A DNA stretch of 8,846 nt from Nanobdellota archaeon (GTDB lineage Archaea > Nanobdellota > Nanobdellia > Nanobdellales > Nanobdellaceae): contig JAIXNB010000037.1 in the NCBI GenBank assembly GCA_020697515.1, forward strand, positions 1 through 8,846. The letters run 5' to 3'. Positions 3 to 8,846 of this stretch are shown in pieces. The translations under genes and the position numbers were made by a program. Numbering within the stretch: the stretch's first letter is position 1; each line of letters begins with the position of its first letter. Under the pieces are notes generated by a model. It saw only the letters and a list, made by a program, of their open reading frames with translations, was not told where the DNA came from and did not search any database.

Positions 3-401
3 CCTGCAGATCCATCATCTATCAAAATTATTATTAATAAAAATGAGTTGGCGATTCCCAGTTGTAGTAGCTATAAGCATAACACGCCTCTAGTACTTAC
101 CCCATATTTAAAAACAGGTAGGAACATTATACTAGTAGATAGCGATCATAAGGTAGTTTTGAGAGATATGGAAATAGAGATAGAAGAACCCAAAATCTTT
201 CATATGTTTAAACGACCGAGAAATGGAATACTATATCTGTTTGTGATAAAAGGAAGAGGTATTCTGAGAATAAACAATTGTACTTATGAAATTACACCAC
301 AAACCGCAGTATTAAACATAAAACGATGTATAATGGATAATAACTTACTGATACTGGAAGCAAACCCATATATAGAGATATCAAAAATTGTTATAACATG
401 A
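3..401 (+). CDS. C-terminal part (or whole, if TTG-48 is the start) of an uncharacterised beta-rich protein; first gene of the putative surface-protein cluster
   Basis: The frame is open from the left window edge (..PADPSSIKIIINKNELAIPSC..), with no ATG or GTG before the TTG at 48, so the gene probably starts upstream of the window. The stop overlaps the next start as ATGA (398-401). The C-terminus ...EISKIVIT carries the KIV[IT] motif also found at the ends of the two lipoproteins. No known family recognised. Confidence 0.45.
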   Translation, partial: PADPSSIKIIINKNELAIPSCSSYKHNTPLVLTPYLKTGRNIILVDSDHKVVLRDMEIEIEEPKIFHMFKRPRNGILYLFVIKGRGILRINNCTYEITPQTAVLNIKRCIMDNNLLILEANPYIEISKIVIT

Positions 402-475
402 AAGGGGAGAGCACAGTTGGTATAATTGTATTAATTATTTTTCTAGTGTCTATAGGGTACATTGCAATAAATTTC
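398..475 (+). other. Candidate class III (prepilin-type) signal peptide or signal-anchor segment
   Basis: MKG-ESTV followed by a hydrophobic helix fits the [KR]-[GA] / small-hydrophobic pattern cleaved by archaeal prepilin peptidases. An uncleaved type II anchor is an equally possible reading. Confidence 0.4.
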
Positions 476-1723
476 AAAGAAGTTATTGAAGAGTATATTA
501 GAGGAGCGTCTGGGAAGGTTGTTACTGAGCCTGTTGAGGCTACTGCTAGATCTATAAGGGAAATGTACACATCATTGCAAAAAACTATGGACCTAGTAAC
601 GAATCCTTGGAAGTATATGTATGAAATAGAGGAAGCTAAGCCATCCGAAGAAGTTATAAGAGAACAATATGGGATCTCTATTAGTTATTTATCACCATTA
701 TCTCATGCTATATTTAAATGCAAGAATAAAAATTGTAGTGATATTATAATCCCTGATGTGTATCTGGTTTCCTACATTAGATACAATTTTCCCGAATGGA
801 AAAGAATTAGATTTTCTTGCAATGTAAGTACAACCTATGATGAATGCTTTTCTGTACGTCACTGTAATATCTCAAAAAAGGAGATTAAAGGAGTGAAAGG
901 AATATTAGCACAACAAATAAAGGTTACTCTAGAGTTTAACAAAAATATACCAATATGTCATGATTGTTCTATAACCACTAATCCAAAAGAATGTATAAAT
1001 GAACCAGTTAGATTTAAAGATTACGGGTTTAGAGCAGAGGTAACATTAAAAGCTAATTTTAATGTGGAAGCGAATACAACTTTCAGATCCCTAGTAACCA
1101 CTGATACAGTACTATCAGAGGCTATAAGTAGAAAGAAATCTATTTACAACGTACTAAATATAGACAGTACGAAATATGATGTAGCATATTATACAGGGCT
1201 TTTGGATTTCCCCCATGTAAGTATATCTAGATTAGGTAGAAATTACAATTATCCAATAATATTATTCGGGGAAAATACAGAATCTTATGATGTGTTACTG
1301 TTTGGAATCCGGGAATTAGATAATATAAAGTCTATAAACAATCTCAAGGTATATATATTTACATCTAAGGGCATTGACTTAAACTACTTAAATTTAGAAA
1401 ATGGAAAATGTGAAAATAATTATAGGCACGAATTTAAAATTGATGATTCTAAAACCTTATTTTCAATAAACTGCAGAGAACAAAGTAGCAATCTCGAGGG
1501 TGAGAAGCATTATTGTGATATTAAAATAACCAAAAAGTTTGTAGATAATTATAGAAGAAGGGATGGAGATCCATTGAAATTTATAATACCTATATGTCTG
1601 AGAAAAAAAGAAACATTTATTGGAGATTATGGAGAGTTATTGGTACGAGCATATATTAATTATACCTATGAAGTATCTGCGAGTTCGGAAATACCCTATA
1701 CTCCCTTTTATACAGAGATTTAA
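398..1723 (+). CDS. Cys-rich exported protein (441 aa) with a pilin-like class III signal peptide or N-terminal signal anchor; function unknown
   Basis: Long ORF coupled to the upstream ORF by an ATGA overlap. The N-terminus MKG/ESTVGIIVLIIFLVSIGYIAINF has a short charged leader (K at -2, G at -1) followed by about 22 hydrophobic residues. The rest is hydrophilic and beta-rich, with 12 Cys and 5 N-X-S/T sequons (NCS, NVS, NIS, NTT, NYT). The IPIC motif occurs at aa 184 and aa 397. Confidence 0.7.
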   Translation: MKGESTVGIIVLIIFLVSIGYIAINFKEVIEEYIRGASGKVVTEPVEATARSIREMYTSLQKTMDLVTNPWKYMYEIEEAKPSEEVIREQYGISISYLSPLSHAIFKCKNKNCSDIIIPDVYLVSYIRYNFPEWKRIRFSCNVSTTYDECFSVRHCNISKKEIKGVKGILAQQIKVTLEFNKNIPICHDCSITTNPKECINEPVRFKDYGFRAEVTLKANFNVEANTTFRSLVTTDTVLSEAISRKKSIYNVLNIDSTKYDVAYYTGLLDFPHVSISRLGRNYNYPIILFGENTESYDVLLFGIRELDNIKSINNLKVYIFTSKGIDLNYLNLENGKCENNYRHEFKIDDSKTLFSINCREQSSNLEGEKHYCDIKITKKFVDNYRRRDGDPLKFIIPICLRKKETFIGDYGELLVRAYINYTYEVSASSEIPYTPFYTEI

Positions 1724-1752: not shown

Positions 1753-1763
1753 ATTTATATTTA
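1753..1763 (+). promoter_or_regulatory. TATA-like box upstream of the first lipoprotein gene (implies a leaderless or near-leaderless mRNA)
   Basis: ATTTATATTTA is centred about 26 nt upstream of ATG 1784. It is preceded by oligo-T tracts (1724-1728, 1730-1733) just after the stop of the 441-aa gene, which could act as an archaeal terminator. Such AT-rich matches are common in this genome. Confidence 0.35.
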
Positions 1764-1783: not shown

Positions 1784-1843
1784 ATGGATAGAAGAATAAT
1801 AGGATTTGCATTTATATTTCCATTGATACTATTGGCAGGATGT
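1784..1843 (+). other. Signal peptide with lipobox (LLAG/C)
   Basis: Matches the classical lipobox [LVI][ASTVI][GAS]C directly after a hydrophobic core. The DNA GCAGGATGTACTAATA (1835-1850) differs at only one position from the equivalent site of the next gene (2876-2891). Confidence 0.6.
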
Positions 1844-2824
1844 ACTAATACTCAGACAAAGTCATCATCAATGTTAATGTCTTCTTTTAGATGTACACTA
1901 CCATCACAGCCAGGAGTAATAGATGTAGAAGTTACTGGTTTTCCTTCAGAGATTATTGCATCAACATCGGATAAGGAGGGGTCTCCGGTAGTGTTTTCTA
2001 TCGAATTCAAGAATACTATTACAGGAGTTGATTATCCTGAGGATAGGATAAATATAAAATATACATTTATCCCAAATATTGGAAAAAAATATACTAAAGA
2101 TGTACAAATAGATTTGGCATATTATGATCCAACTTCCAATCAAATAACACCAAGTACAATTTATGAACAAGTAGAAACAAAAATTCCGGCTGGAATGTCT
2201 GAAATGGGCGTATACAGAGGTGTACTTAGGTGGGAATTTATAGGAAAAACAAAAGTTTATATACCTATATGTATTGGTTATGATCCTAAAATAACTAAAG
2301 TCTCTCCAGAAGTAATGGTTTGTGATCCAACTAGTTTGCCAGAACCATGTTACAGCGCATCACCTGTTATAGTTAATATAGAAAGTGTAAAATCTATAGG
2401 AGCCCCGAGAAGAGGAGGATCCGGGATAAGAGGGTACTATAAAATAAGGTTCTCTTTAGAAGACATATATGGTGGACTTGATGGTTGTAATGGAGATTAT
2501 TTATCAAATACAAAGAGAATTAAGGTGGATAAAATCGAGCTAAAAGTAGACGATTTATCTATAGAGGAGGGAGGTGATATATTCAGGTGTTATCCATTAG
2601 AGAAAAAAGATGGTAAGAGTTATATATACCTAAGACCTTCAAACGAGATAGTATGCTATGTTTATTTAGACAAGCTAGCTGATAAATGTAAACAAAATAA
2701 TAATTGTTATTTGGATGAGAACTCATTGAAACTCGGAAAATCTGCTATGATATCCATAAAATTAGAGTATGATTATTGTAGGAGTATGTCGCTTGGTCCT
2801 GCTAAAATAGTTACTTTACCTTAA
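1784..2824 (+). CDS. Putative lipoprotein (346 aa), Cys-rich extracellular domain, unknown family
   Basis: The N-terminus MDRRIIGFAFIFPLILLAGC has a positive n-region, a hydrophobic h-region and lipobox L-A-G-C (Cys20, nt 1841-1843), followed by a Ser/Thr-rich tether (TNTQTKSSS). The mature part has 10 Cys. IPIC occurs at aa 160. The C-terminal module is MISIKLEYDYCRSMSLGPAKIVTLP. Confidence 0.75.
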   Translation: MDRRIIGFAFIFPLILLAGCTNTQTKSSSMLMSSFRCTLPSQPGVIDVEVTGFPSEIIASTSDKEGSPVVFSIEFKNTITGVDYPEDRINIKYTFIPNIGKKYTKDVQIDLAYYDPTSNQITPSTIYEQVETKIPAGMSEMGVYRGVLRWEFIGKTKVYIPICIGYDPKITKVSPEVMVCDPTSLPEPCYSASPVIVNIESVKSIGAPRRGGSGIRGYYKIRFSLEDIYGGLDGCNGDYLSNTKRIKVDKIELKVDDLSIEEGGDIFRCYPLEKKDGKSYIYLRPSNEIVCYVYLDKLADKCKQNNNCYLDENSLKLGKSAMISIKLEYDYCRSMSLGPAKIVTLP

Positions 2825-2830
2825 TAAGTT

Positions 2831-2884
2831 GTGAGGTGTATATATTTTTTATTTTTGCTCCCCATTCTATTATTAGCAGGATGT
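2831..2884 (+). other. Signal peptide with lipobox (LLAG/C)
   Basis: LLLAGCTN is identical in its last six residues to the LLAGCTN of the upstream gene. Confidence 0.55.
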
Positions 2885-3721
2885 ACAAATATTCCTAATG
2901 AACCTAAACCTAAAACAAAACCTAAGGAACTTCTTATAACACCGATATATGAAATATGGCCGGATAAAATTACTGAGACTTACGCTAAAAGCTCAGGATT
3001 TTATTTCACATTTAAAGTATATAACCCGTATAATAAAACTAATTTTACTGCTTGTTTAGACTCTTTTGTTGGAAGAGAATGGAGTGTCATTGGAAAGAGA
3101 TGTATAAATGAAGAACTTGCTAAGGATACCTATAAGATATTTAGTTTACCAGTAGGTGGAAGAATAAAATTAGTATTGGGTTTAGAAAGCAAGCAAAAAT
3201 ACGAGGATGTTAGAGTAAATATATGTTATAATGCTACTCAAATCTTTATTTTAACAGGATGCGTACCGAAAAATATAGGAGAAGGTCATAATCAAGCATC
3301 CATCTGCAAATACAAGATTATCGAATCTCTAAGGGGGCCAATTAAGGTATATAGTGCTGTTATGTCCTCCAATAGAACACATTACATCTTAAGCTTTAGA
3401 CTAAAATATTTTCCTGATAACCGAACATATATATCTAGCGACTCTACGATTCTTTCAAGTAAATGTTATTTATCTTATGTGATAAAAAGTGGTGGAATAG
3501 TTGAAATACCTATAAATATTAGCTATATAACAAATACTTTGTATTTTAAATACACCAAAGTTAATGTAAGTAGTGTAGGGGAAGATATAGGAGTTACTAT
3601 AATTTTTGATAAAAATAAAGCAGGTTTGACACCGAGGGATATTATTTCTATTAAGTTAAAATTAAGTTATATTATTTTTAAACAAATGAATTTTGGAAAA
3701 ATTGTTATAGAACACTCTTAG
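2831..3721 (+). CDS. Putative lipoprotein (296 aa), paralog of the preceding gene at its signal peptide and C-terminus
   Basis: GTG is the only possible start after the in-frame stop at 2825-2827, 6 nt past the preceding stop codon. The N-terminus is MRCIYFLFLLPILLLAGC (lipobox Cys18, nt 2882-2884), followed by a Pro/Lys-rich tether (NEPKPKTKPKE). The mature part has 6 Cys and 7 N-X-S/T sequons. The C-terminal IISIKLKLSYIIFKQMNFGKIVIEHS aligns with the 346-aa protein with identical spacing. Confidence 0.7.
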   Translation: MRCIYFLFLLPILLLAGCTNIPNEPKPKTKPKELLITPIYEIWPDKITETYAKSSGFYFTFKVYNPYNKTNFTACLDSFVGREWSVIGKRCINEELAKDTYKIFSLPVGGRIKLVLGLESKQKYEDVRVNICYNATQIFILTGCVPKNIGEGHNQASICKYKIIESLRGPIKVYSAVMSSNRTHYILSFRLKYFPDNRTYISSDSTILSSKCYLSYVIKSGGIVEIPINISYITNTLYFKYTKVNVSSVGEDIGVTIIFDKNKAGLTPRDIISIKLKLSYIIFKQMNFGKIVIEHS

Positions 3722-3723
3722 AG

Positions 3724-3730
3724 TTTTTAA
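3724..3730 (+). promoter_or_regulatory. TATA-like box upstream of aIF2-alpha
   Basis: TTTTTAA is centred about 27 nt upstream of ATG 3754, within a 32-nt intergenic spacer and with no Shine-Dalgarno-like GGTGA/GGAGG between them. Weak evidence in AT-rich DNA. Confidence 0.3.
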
Positions 3731-3753
3731 CCTTTTATTTTTGAAAATTAAAA

Positions 3754-5492: not shown

Positions 5493-5960
5493 TTATTGTT
5501 TCCTTTTAAATTCAGGTTTTGATTTAAATTGTTGGGCTAGCCTTGGTGCAACTTTCTCTAGATGATGCAGTAGCAATTGATTTTTAGCGTTAAGATCATT
5601 AATTACTGTAGTAAGTTGAAGTATCCTAGCTGATATCGCATTTAGCATATTATTCAACTCATCCTTTGTAAACTCTATTTTTTTTATTCCTTCAATTTCT
5701 ATGTGGGATGGGGAGAACATTAATATAAAGTCTAATAGCGATTGAAAATCTTTTGGAGATCCCTCTAATTCCAAAAAGCTAGACCACATTTTAATTTTCT
5801 TACCATTAACCTCTATTTCTCTTTCTATAGGTTCCTCTATTTTATAGTTCGTTATTTCTAAACCCTCAAACTGTTTTATATCTTCTAATAGTTTATTTAA
5901 AAATTGTGTAATAAAATCTTTTGGAGATCCAAGAGCTTCAAAGAAAAATCTCGCCTTCAT
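5493..5960 (-). CDS. Uncharacterised 155-aa protein with an internal duplication and a C-terminal coiled-coil/basic tail
   Basis: The start overlaps the L44e stop (ATGA on the minus strand, 5957-5960). Two copies of beta-strand + GSPKDF + helix are present (FFFEALGSPKDFITQFLNKLL and SFLELEGSPKDFQSLLDFILMF). The C-terminal heptad-like segment is NNMLNAISARILQLTTVINDLNAKNQLLLHHLEK, followed by KSKPEFKRKQ. The protein has no Cys and no recognised family. Confidence 0.6.
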   Translation of the reverse strand: MKARFFFEALGSPKDFITQFLNKLLEDIKQFEGLEITNYKIEEPIEREIEVNGKKIKMWSSFLELEGSPKDFQSLLDFILMFSPSHIEIEGIKKIEFTKDELNNMLNAISARILQLTTVINDLNAKNQLLLHHLEKVAPRLAQQFKSKPEFKRKQ

Positions 5961-6299: not shown

Positions 6300-6911
6300 T
6301 TATCCTTTTCTCATTTTTATTTCTTCACATATATTTAAAGATAACATTCTTTTCGCAATTTCTTTAGGCAATGTGTATATCTCTTCGGGATTGAAGGGAC
6401 CATATATCTTTCCATCAGGACCAACAATTTGAGAAAATTCTTTTGTAAATATAACTAGAACTTTGTTTATTCTCTTTGTTCTTTTTTCCATCAGTGGTTT
6501 AACATCTTCGAATAGTTTATTTATTTCTGGAGGCTCTCCTAAAAATATATTTTCCAAAACATGTTTATAATACCCCCTTAACAATGCGGATACCACATCA
6601 AATAATATTCTCTCTTCTCTAGTCATATCATTTCTCTCAGCTATCTTTATATTCTCCTTCGCCTCGAATAAAGCTAGATTAATTAGTTTCTCTAGTCTAA
6701 TGTTAACAATTTGTTTTATGAGCTCCTTTAGGTTCTCTAACTCTAACTTTAACCTTTTATGTTCTTCATCTTCTTCTCCTAATTCAAGAAATCTTTTATA
6801 TCTTTTTATCATATCTGAAACACGTTTATAAAATTGTTCTTCAAGTGGTTCTAACTTATTTTTCATCCTTTTTTCTCTTTCATAGACTGCAAAAATATCA
6901 GAAATATCCAT
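6300..6911 (-). CDS. gins51: GINS subunit, Gins51/Gins15 (Sld5/Psf1-like) family
   Basis: The N-terminal A-domain pattern is MDI..I....E.....L.PL.E.FY.RV...I...........E.......LE..N....I...VNIRLEKLINLA. The C-terminal B-domain pattern VLVIFTKEFSQIVGPDGKIYGPFNPEEIYTLPKEIAKRMLSLNICEEI resembles the (V.FL.D.P.FVG.D...YGP....D...LP...A..L......EEI) pattern of archaeal Gins51. This is pattern recognition only. Confidence 0.6.
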   Translation of the reverse strand: MDISDIFAVYEREKRMKNKLEPLEEQFYKRVSDMIKRYKRFLELGEEDEEHKRLKLELENLKELIKQIVNIRLEKLINLALFEAKENIKIAERNDMTREERILFDVVSALLRGYYKHVLENIFLGEPPEINKLFEDVKPLMEKRTKRINKVLVIFTKEFSQIVGPDGKIYGPFNPEEIYTLPKEIAKRMLSLNICEEIKMRKG

Positions 6912-6923
6912 GGGGTATTATAG

Positions 6924-6931
6924 TTTTAAAA
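6924..6931. promoter_or_regulatory. Palindromic TATA-like box TTTTAAAA in the divergent gins51 / reverse gyrase region
   Basis: It is centred about 27 nt upstream of ATG 6955 (the reverse gyrase start preferred here) and about 17 nt from the gins51 ATG (6911, minus strand). The sequence is its own reverse complement, so it could be read in both directions. Confidence 0.35.
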
Positions 6932-6954
6932 TGATAAGTACGTTACACATGATT

Positions 6955-8709
6955 ATGTATCTGTATATAAAACAAGGATGTTTTAATTGTCAAAATACTA
7001 TATATTCTGAGAGACTAAGGCATAGTGTTCCCTGTGAGAGAGATATTGATGATGAAGCTTATTTTGATGTAATTCAAAAGTTTCATGATAAAGAATCATT
7101 ATACGAGTATTTATATATGTATCTAAATAGAGAAGGAAGGCTTTTTAAGTTTAAGGAGTTGTATGATCTACACAAAGCTACAAGAGATTTCATTAGTTTC
7201 TTTCTGAAAATTTTGGATTCTGAACCGTGGTCCATACAAATAACTTGGTTTAAAAGATTGTATAACAAATTCTCATTCTCAATGATAGCTCCAACAGGAA
7301 CAGGGAAGACCACTTTTATAGCAGTATCCTCGATCTATTTCTCCTCAAAGTTAAATAAGAAGATCTATATAGTATTACCGACAACAGTTCTTGTAGAACA
7401 AGTGTATGAACGAATTGTTCAATTTGTAGAGAAAATAGACACTTCTCTAAATGTTGTTGCATATCTTAGAAAGAACAAAAAGGAAGCTAAAGAAAGAATA
7501 ATCAAGGGAGAATTTGATATACTTATAACATCTAATCAATTTTTGTCTAGGAATTTTGATATACTTAAAGATAAAAAATTTGATATAATCTTTGTTGATG
7601 ATGTAGATGCATTCTTCAAAGGATCTAAAAATATAGAGAGAGTTCTAATCCTCTTGGGGTTTACAGATGAAGATATAAATACCGCTTATGAGATGATAAA
7701 AGCTAAAAGGCAAGGAGATTTTGAATTGGTAAAGAAACTTAATGAAAAGTTAGAAAAAGTAAAATCCAAACCTCATGGAATATTAATATTATCTTCAGCT
7801 ACCGGAAGGATTCGTGGAACAAGGACAAAGTTATATAGAGAACTTTTGAATTTCACGGCAGGAACAGGTACTACCAAAATTAGAAATATAATTGATACAT
7901 ATGTACTGCCTAAACAGGATTTAAAGATCGAAGTATATAAATTGGTGAATCTTTTAGGGGACGGAATAGTTATATTTGTTACTAGAGAACAAGGAGTGAA
8001 GTTTGCAAAGGAACTTTATGAATTTTTGAGGGATAGAAATGTCAGAGCAGGTATAGTTGTATCTGAAATCAAAGGAAGTACAGAGAACATCAAAAAGTTT
8101 GCTAATAAAGAATTAAATGTCCTTATAGGTATTGCACACTTCTATGGATTATTGGTTAGAGGGTTAGATCTACCTACTAGAGTTAAATATGTTATATTCA
8201 CAGGAATTCCTAAAATAAGAATTAACTTAACTAGAAAAGAGAGGAATGCTAACAATTTGATGATACTTGCAAACATACTTTTAGATATCTTACCACAAGA
8301 TCGATCTAGAGAACTAAAAATATTATTAAGAAAACTCCAAAGAGCTTTTAGGAGGCTGTCTTCAGAAGCTTTTAGGGTACTATCTGAAAGCTTTGAGCGA
8401 GGGACATCAATTGATGGTTGGTTGGAAAATCTTAGACAACAATTAGAAAGGTTGTACAATATTGTATCAGAAATATTAGATAAAGAGGATATTATTGAGA
8501 AATTAAAGAACCATCCAGATGTTAGTATAACAATTTCTAATGGAGATATTTGGTTAAACTTACCGGATATAAAAACCTACATACAAGCATCTGGAAGGAG
8601 CTCTAGATTATATGCAGGGGGTATTACTAAAGGTTTAAGTATCATACTAGTCGATGATGAAAAACTGTTGAGAAGTTTGGAGAGAAAGATGAAACTATAT
8701 TTTGATTAA
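6955..8709 (+). CDS. rgy: Reverse gyrase, N-terminal helicase-like half only (split reverse gyrase)
   Basis: The maximal ORF begins at 6910. ATG 6955 (or 6949) is preferred because reverse gyrases start a few residues before the zinc finger (here CFNC-x14-CERD) and a TATA-like box lies about 27 nt upstream. Diagnostic reverse gyrase motifs: F..FF......PW.IQ..W.KR......FS.IAPTGTGKTTF (Walker A at 7288-7314), ILITSNQFLSRN, FDIIFVDDVDAFFKGSKNIERVLILLGF (motif II near 7594-7608), ILILSSATG, FRELLNF-like LYRELLNFTAG, LNVLIGIAHFYGLLVRGLDLPTRVKYVIFTGIPK, and YIQASGRSSRLYAGGITKGLSIILVDDEKL (motif VI at 8584-8607). The ORF ends 40 aa after motif VI, with no Toprim/topoisomerase IA domain. Confidence 0.9.
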   Translation: MYLYIKQGCFNCQNTIYSERLRHSVPCERDIDDEAYFDVIQKFHDKESLYEYLYMYLNREGRLFKFKELYDLHKATRDFISFFLKILDSEPWSIQITWFKRLYNKFSFSMIAPTGTGKTTFIAVSSIYFSSKLNKKIYIVLPTTVLVEQVYERIVQFVEKIDTSLNVVAYLRKNKKEAKERIIKGEFDILITSNQFLSRNFDILKDKKFDIIFVDDVDAFFKGSKNIERVLILLGFTDEDINTAYEMIKAKRQGDFELVKKLNEKLEKVKSKPHGILILSSATGRIRGTRTKLYRELLNFTAGTGTTKIRNIIDTYVLPKQDLKIEVYKLVNLLGDGIVIFVTREQGVKFAKELYEFLRDRNVRAGIVVSEIKGSTENIKKFANKELNVLIGIAHFYGLLVRGLDLPTRVKYVIFTGIPKIRINLTRKERNANNLMILANILLDILPQDRSRELKILLRKLQRAFRRLSSEAFRVLSESFERGTSIDGWLENLRQQLERLYNIVSEILDKEDIIEKLKNHPDVSITISNGDIWLNLPDIKTYIQASGRSSRLYAGGITKGLSIILVDDEKLLRSLERKMKLYFD

Positions 8710-8735: not shown

Positions 8736-8807
8736 AGTTAACAATATGTTAAATAGATGTTAACACCATGTTAACTAATGTTAACATAATCTATGAAGGT
8801 TGTTAAA
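8736..8807. repeat. Helically phased array of (A/T)GTTAA(C/A) boxes (four GTTAAC palindromes plus two GTTAAA variants)
   Basis: The boxes are AGTTAAC 8736-8742, ATGTTAAA 8746-8753, ATGTTAAC 8757-8764, ATGTTAAC 8768-8775, ATGTTAAC 8778-8785 and TGTTAAA 8801-8807. The spacing of box starts is 10, 11, 11 and 10 bp, then about 22 bp. By eye, only one other GTTAAC occurs in the remaining 8.7 kb (6702-6707, inside the gins51 CDS). Confidence 0.7.
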
Positions 8808-8846
8808 ATATTAAGGGCAGGATATCCTAAGGATATATATTATTAA

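Follow-up and report, generated by a model that had tools for sequence, protein, structure and literature searches.

Two adjacent nanoarchaeote genes encode probable lipoproteins with a conserved lipobox in a conserved envelope gene cluster

The 8,846-nucleotide (nt) contig JAIXNB010000037.1 from a Nanobdellota archaeon, referred to here over its full length as the window (31% GC), carries on its forward strand two adjacent genes whose products, P1 and P2, both have a predicted signal peptide ending in a lipobox. P1 is a 346-amino acid (aa) protein encoded at 1784..2824, with a signal peptide predicted to span residues 1-19 and the lipobox residues LLAG followed by C20 (N-terminus MDRRIIGFAFIFPLILLAGC-TNTQTKSSS). 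The TGT codon of this Cys, the predicted site of lipidation and mature N-terminus, lies at 1841..1843. P2 (296 aa, 2831..3721) starts with GTG and has a predicted signal peptide of residues 1-17, again with LLAG before the Cys, in this case C18 (N-terminus MRCIYFLFLLPILLLAGC-TNIPNEPKPKTKPKE; TGT codon at 2882..2884). The two N-termini are alike in their basic residues (R3 and R4 in P1, R2 in P2), in a single hydrophobic stretch, which is the sole hydrophobic segment of each protein, and in the motif LLAGC-TN. An initial annotation of this DNA had described both open reading frames (ORFs) as lipobox proteins with a tether after the Cys, Ser/Thr-rich in P1 and Pro/Lys-rich in P2, and we agree with it on both points.

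All public gene calls but one place the start of P2 at a TTG codon (2855..2857, forward strand), giving a 288-aa protein that begins MLPILLLAGC. This start is probably wrong: the charged n-region is lost with it, and the N-termini of P2 orthologues, in which an ATG or GTG start precedes a basic n-region (ATG MKR.., GTG MKK.., ATG MDKKDK.., MKISK..), support the GTG at 2831 and thus the 296-aa protein. Truncated gene models of this kind would escape signal-peptide predictors. Since the public models of P2 start late and hide the signal peptide, lipoprotein counts in these metagenome-assembled genomes are probably underestimates.

To score lipoboxes we used a rule of the PROSITE PS51257 type, consisting of a charged n-region and an uncharged core followed by [LVI][ASTVI][GAS]C, with the Cys at position 15-35. 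The window and non-redundant related loci together have 62 ORFs of 100 aa or more. The rule matched 11 of these, all members of the P1 or P2 family, and none of the other 51. The Lys or Arg of the n-region was kept in the orthologues passing the rule, with the exception of P0010, where the first Lys is at position 9. Word-indexed searches returned a few close orthologues only, in which the lipobox was invariant, and an exhaustive HMMER search with a P1 profile added the distant relatives P0007, P0010, P0011 and P0013, each of which carries L/F-L-A/S-G-C. Neither a genome collection scan with the P1 profile nor an initial scan of metagenomes with the P2 profile gave any hit; a second metagenome scan yielded one new lineage.

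In alignments of 7 and 8 P1 sequences, where the lowest identity to the window protein was 21-23%, G19 and C20 belonged to a set of just 12-14 invariant columns; L17 was also invariant in the 7-sequence alignment. Similarly, L13, L15, G17 and C18 were invariant in a 5-sequence P2 alignment with a lowest identity of 19%. The P1 and P2 homologues of lineage L016, which were not aligned, have FIAGC and FISGC, respectively. Overall, G-C preceded by an aliphatic residue or Phe at -3 was kept in 9 P1-type and 6 P2-type sequences from at least 6 lineages, down to identities of ~20%, with the lipobox G-C being among 12-23 invariant columns across the P1-type and P2-type sets. The Cys itself, whose loss in orthologues the initial annotation took as evidence against lipoproteins, was present in every homologue found. 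Co-variation of the P1 and P2 lipoboxes within genomes, exemplified by LLSGC and FLSGC, both in L004, and by FLAGC, found twice in L008, was not significant (equalled in 21/120 and 5/24 permutations). The proteins diverge rapidly, as had been supposed from the window: across lineages P1 is 24-46% and P2 20-34% identical, giving a range of 20-46% for the ectodomains, versus 45-73% for eIF2alpha, and 69-73% for Nop10. This pattern of conservation argues that the lipobox of P1 and P2 is functional rather than a product of chance. The most likely interpretation, which has good support at the level of sequence and to which we would give a probability of about 0.7, is that P1 and P2 are Sec-exported, lipobox-dependent nanoarchaeote lipoproteins.

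Whether the two proteins are related to each other is a separate matter. The initial annotation had proposed a tandem duplication, based in part on nearly identical DNA at the Cys codons. The match is indeed present, the 16-mers GCAGGATGTACTAATA (1835-1850) and GCAGGATGTACAAATA (2876-2891) being equal at 15/16 bases, but it is uninformative about duplication because the codons they share (GCA, GGA, TGT and AAT) are those favored by this genome of 31% GC (e.g. 84% for TGT and 78% for AAT). Given this codon bias, and Leu codons just upstream that differ between the two genes, we do not take the DNA match as a sign of recent duplication or gene conversion. A gapless alignment of the C-termini also exists (P1 310-343 vs. 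P2 259-292, 12/34 identical residues, BLASTP E=0.055), but its significance is borderline, as 11/1000 shuffles in a whole-protein scan did as well as the best ungapped 34-mer (p ~0.011). Anchoring the shuffles at the C-terminus gave 0/20000, in a test chosen post hoc with the data already seen.

Profile comparisons with hhalign gave an E value of ~1e-6 when the signal peptides were kept. This value seems to derive from the signal peptides, since it dropped to 0.006 after trimming, with a probability of 6% and only a weak C-terminal match of ~34-44 residues between mature P1 and P2. A C-terminal region reported in one of the untrimmed comparisons likewise appears to owe its score to the signal peptide. 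No relationship was detectable between the central domains. With profiles that align only at the signal peptide and, weakly, at the C-terminal hairpin, whole-gene duplication is not supported; a remote common origin is possible, as judged from the signal peptide and the C-terminal beta-hairpin. One explanation would be that they are tandem duplicates whose central domains have diverged beyond recognition, the other that they are unrelated and that a common machinery has imposed the same type of signal peptide. Duplication would fit with the adjacency of P1 and P2 in every lineage, the position of the 34-mer match at the very end of both proteins, the hhalign E value on the mature parts and the fact that P1 itself has clearly been duplicated within one lineage, L007 (products of 343 aa and 311 aa). 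It is harder to reconcile with the hhalign probability of just 6% in the absence of signal peptides and with conserved Cys patterns that differ between P1 and P2, and we put its chances at somewhat below even. The two P1-type genes of L007, in tandem at 8931-9962 and 10001-10936, both encode a lipobox, making three consecutive lipobox genes in this lineage.

The N-termini could also be read as Sec signal peptides of the ordinary kind or as signal anchors that stay uncleaved, with a Cys that serves in a disulfide or as a metal ligand and is not lipidated. The ectodomains are Cys-rich anyway, and a single lipoprotein has been predicted for Nanoarchaeum equitans, both of which would fit with this idea. 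However, it leaves unexplained why two families whose mature domains are otherwise unrelated both conserve the whole L-x-G-C context, at a fixed distance past the hydrophobic core. In addition, L-A-G, with Leu at -3, is ill suited as a site for signal peptidase I, and the AliA family of the archaeal lipidation pathway has been reported in Nanoarchaeota. We consider this alternative decidedly unlikely. A class III (type IV pilin) signal peptide does not fit either protein: no [KR]-[GA] site precedes the hydrophobic stretch of P1 or P2, and the cleavage motif sits after the hydrophobic core, in contrast to the typical pilin N-terminus encoded at 3623-4234 of L003. Lastly, haloarchaeal-style export of P1 as a twin-arginine translocation (Tat) lipoprotein, a possibility that the initial annotation raised from the RR at residues 3-4 of MDRRIIGF, deserves next to no weight. 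The RR is confined to the window lineage: homologues begin with MDRK, MDVRK or MDTRMR, or lack a basic pair, and P2 is likewise without RR. In addition, N. equitans lacks predicted Tat substrates or components (PMC2945643), and non-haloarchaeal lipoproteins are exported by Sec (PMC12462473).

If P1 and P2 are indeed lipoproteins, a pathway for their maturation can be proposed, as a whole, by analogy with Haloferax volcanii. In this organism, AliA and AliB are needed to attach thioether-linked archaeol to the lipobox Cys of lipoproteins (Hong et al. 2025, PMC12462473). Lipoproteins are reported to be prevalent in Euryarchaeota and DPANN (PMC12462473), and Table 1 of Makarova et al. 2015 (PMC5898192) scores arCOG02177, the AliA family, as being present in Nanoarchaeota. 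The premise of the initial annotation that no lipidation enzyme is known in archaea is thus outdated. We infer lipidation, cleavage, the participation of an AliA-family enzyme and the role of P1 and P2. Once translocated, C20 of P1 and C18 of P2 would gain a thioether-linked archaeol (diphytanylglyceryl-type) through an AliA-family enzyme (arCOG02177). Cleavage between the Gly and the Cys would follow, by an archaeal lipoprotein signal peptidase. The mature proteins would then sit on the outer face of the cytoplasmic membrane, held by a disordered tether of 10-25 residues.

Some observations weigh against this interpretation. Of 536 N. equitans proteins, just 1 was called a lipoprotein in an earlier survey (two of three predictors), so the lipoprotein pathway may be little used in the phylum. 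Nanoarchaeota have been reported to be without lipid synthesis of their own (PMC3387779), and the lipid donor would therefore have to be host-derived. As for the role of the two proteins, Pfam, NCBIfam and PDB sequence searches with P1 and P2 gave no match.

An AlphaFold2 model gives some indication of what the P1 lipobox would anchor. The model, built from 7 sequences, has a mean predicted local distance difference test (pLDDT) score of 82.4 and a predicted template modeling score (pTM) of 0.78, and supersedes an earlier one from 4 sequences (pLDDT 55). After a disordered stretch (residues 1-31) come two domains rich in beta structure and, at 319-345, a long C-terminal hairpin; the disordered Ser/Thr tether extends to ~aa 31-44, with the tandem beta-sandwich ectodomain after it. 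The P1 ectodomain is thus modeled as an all-beta, tandem immunoglobulin-like (Ig-like) beta-sandwich. Foldseek searches of PDB and BFVD with the model returned only generic tandem Ig-like ectodomains or adhesins (integrin alpha legs, Bap, Esp, RbmA and Fab fragments), with template modeling scores (TM-scores) of at most 0.26. A faint profile match linked residues 43-83 to a long protein that was matched in 11 stretches; a single repeat of this protein matched Pfam Big_12 at E=5.7e-6 (26.9 bits vs. a cut-off of 27). P1 shares its tandem beta-sandwich architecture with Ig-like surface and adhesin domains (integrin alpha thigh/calf, Bap, Esp, RbmA, Big_12), but with TM-scores of 0.26 or less and identities of 7-10%, the likeness is one of fold class only and does not amount to membership.

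We also asked whether the proteins resemble substrate-binding lipoproteins. P1 does not, being modeled as all-beta rather than as an alpha/beta two-lobe protein, and no permease or ATPase genes adjoin; the genes around P1 and P2 encode eIF2alpha, Nop10, a PAC2-family protein and membrane-anchored proteins. A further property of the ectodomains is their Cys content. P1 has 11 Cys (10 besides that of the lipobox), P2 has 8 and the 441-aa protein encoded upstream has 12, versus 0-4 in the cytoplasmic neighbors. Most of the Cys in these three proteins are conserved, with 6 invariant Cys in the P2 ectodomain, and we read this pattern as that of disulfide-stabilized ectodomains. P2 also has 7 N-x-S/T sequons, compared to ~2.5 expected.

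The P1 and P2 genes form part of a larger arrangement. Directly 5' of P1, the gene at 398..1723 (forward strand) encodes the 441-aa Cys-rich protein, which has a single N-terminal membrane anchor. Its start overlaps by 4 nt the first gene of the cluster, of which the window edge leaves only the 3' end (3..401, forward strand) and which encodes a ~346-aa protein, also Cys-rich and with one N-terminal membrane anchor. These two genes precede P1 and P2 in all lineages with a contig that reaches there. The order in at least 6 lineages is the 346-aa and the 414-449-aa anchored proteins, one or two P1-type proteins, the P2-type protein, eIF2alpha, Nop10 and PAC2, with genes for an MJ0538-like protein, L44e, GINS51 and half of a reverse gyrase downstream too, wherever the contig extends far enough. 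P1, P2 and the two anchored Cys-rich proteins are therefore encoded in a conserved four-gene envelope cluster. The 441-aa and 346-aa proteins had no family match in Pfam or NCBIfam searches, and hhalign comparisons among the four cluster families detected nothing besides the weak P1-P2 C-terminus. Class III (pilin) signal peptides were also considered for the 441-aa and 346-aa proteins and were unconvincing across orthologues.

In L007 and L008, genes for pelota and a polytopic membrane protein lie 5' of the cluster. The polytopic protein gene (506-1366 in L008 and 4579-5448 in L007) overlaps the start of pelota by 4 nt, and its product has sub-threshold matches to Peptidase_A24 and Arc_PepC_II, as well as a GIGD motif. 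It is probably a divergent prepilin peptidase.

Within the cluster, P1 and P2 are likely to be transcribed together. A TATA-box-like element, TTTATA (1754..1759, forward strand), lies ~25-30 nt 5' of the P1 ATG, and L001, L004 and L006 have TTTATA or a similar element ~22-30 nt 5' of the start, while L008 has a less strict, A/T-rich version (TATAAA). We consider it the probable promoter of a leaderless P1-P2 transcript. The gap between P1 and P2 is 1-7 nt in every lineage, and P2 is separated from eIF2alpha by a spacer (3722..3753, forward strand) that is T-rich in all lineages and is possibly a terminator combined with the next promoter. Taken together, the TATA-like element, the short gap and the T-rich spacer suggest that the P1-P2 transcript is bicistronic and probably leaderless. 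As to what the cluster does, our guess is that it specifies a structural or adhesive envelope assembly, as opposed to a solute-binding or enzymatic one. Taking this further, it might be a Nanoarchaeales-specific assembly at the host-cell interface, involved in attachment or in the acquisition of host material and anchored by host-derived archaeol, an extension that is doubtful at present.

The predicted lipoproteins can be compared to several known systems. They resemble the AliA/AliB-dependent lipoproteins of Hfx. volcanii (arCOG02177/02178, PMC12462473) in their basic n-region, hydrophobic core and [L/V/I][A/S/T/V/I][G/A/S]C motif, and in a lipobox Cys that is required or conserved; the AliA family of that pathway is also reported in DPANN and Nanoarchaeota. 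In contrast, the haloarchaeal substrates are mostly exported by Tat, with many being solute-binding proteins, whereas P1 and P2 are predicted to use Sec, belong to unannotated beta-sandwich families and come from an organism reported to depend on host lipids. Their motif is also indistinguishable from that of bacterial Lgt/LspA lipoproteins (PS51257 type) and passes the bacterial rule, but archaea have no Lgt or LspA homologues, and the archaeal lipid is an ether-linked archaeol. A precedent for Sec-type lipobox anchoring in a hyperthermophilic archaeon, according to a citation in PMC3387779, is the maltose-binding protein of Thermococcus litoralis. P1 differs from such euryarchaeal substrate-binding proteins in its modeled all-beta tandem sandwich and in having no genes for an ATP-binding cassette transporter nearby.

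The source of the window had been described initially as a small-genome hyperthermophilic archaeon. This is correct, given the label of a P1 match, half of a reverse gyrase and the hot sites that relatives come from. P1 is 100% identical to NCBI HIP66713.1/HIP90115.1, annotated as 'hypothetical protein [Candidatus Nanopusillus sp.]'. A hydrothermal vent metagenome is the source of one set of related contigs, and sample record names of others (GBS...85) can be read as Great Boiling Spring, 85 C. The housekeeping genes of the window are archaeal, encoding eIF2alpha, Nop10, a PAC2-family protein, ribosomal protein L44e, GINS51 and a 599-aa ORF (6910-8709). Only positions 6-556 of the 1172 in TIGR01054 were matched by the latter, which we therefore interpret as the helicase half of a split reverse gyrase. 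In L013/L014 and L007, this gene is followed by tmcA and not by the topoisomerase half.

Two other features of the window are worth recording. The intergenic region 3' of the reverse gyrase helicase-half gene, which is also 5' of tmcA in longer contigs, contains at 8737-8810 ~7 copies of (A)TGTTAA(C/A), each with or resembling the palindrome GTTAAC and spaced by ~11 or 22 nt, possibly an array of regulator-binding sites. A 155-aa protein encoded on the reverse strand at 5493-5960 is assigned to PF27325 (MJ0538) in a precomputed collection, our own Pfam scan being without a match. This MJ0538-like protein is kept between PAC2 and L44e in lineages with contigs that reach there.

As archaeal lipoproteins, P1 and P2 would belong to a known class. 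What is new is that they represent two unannotated, fast-evolving families with an invariant lipobox, that both are encoded in an envelope cluster of four genes that is conserved and without family annotation, and that public gene calls truncate the P2 signal peptide. The biochemistry of archaeal lipoproteins dates only from 2025 and comes so far from a single haloarchaeon. An invariant lipobox in hyperthermophilic, host-dependent nanoarchaeotes supports the operation of the pathway far outside the haloarchaea, extending to cells reported not to make their own lipids. The analysis also defines two new protein families and a conserved envelope cluster for this phylum. With their small size, such genomes lend themselves to a search for the missing archaeal lipoprotein signal peptidase, for which the A24-like aspartyl peptidase adjoining the cluster is a long-shot candidate. 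If the cluster does act at the host interface, the combination of a tiny gene set and strict lipoboxes would narrow the search for this peptidase to a few membrane proteins.

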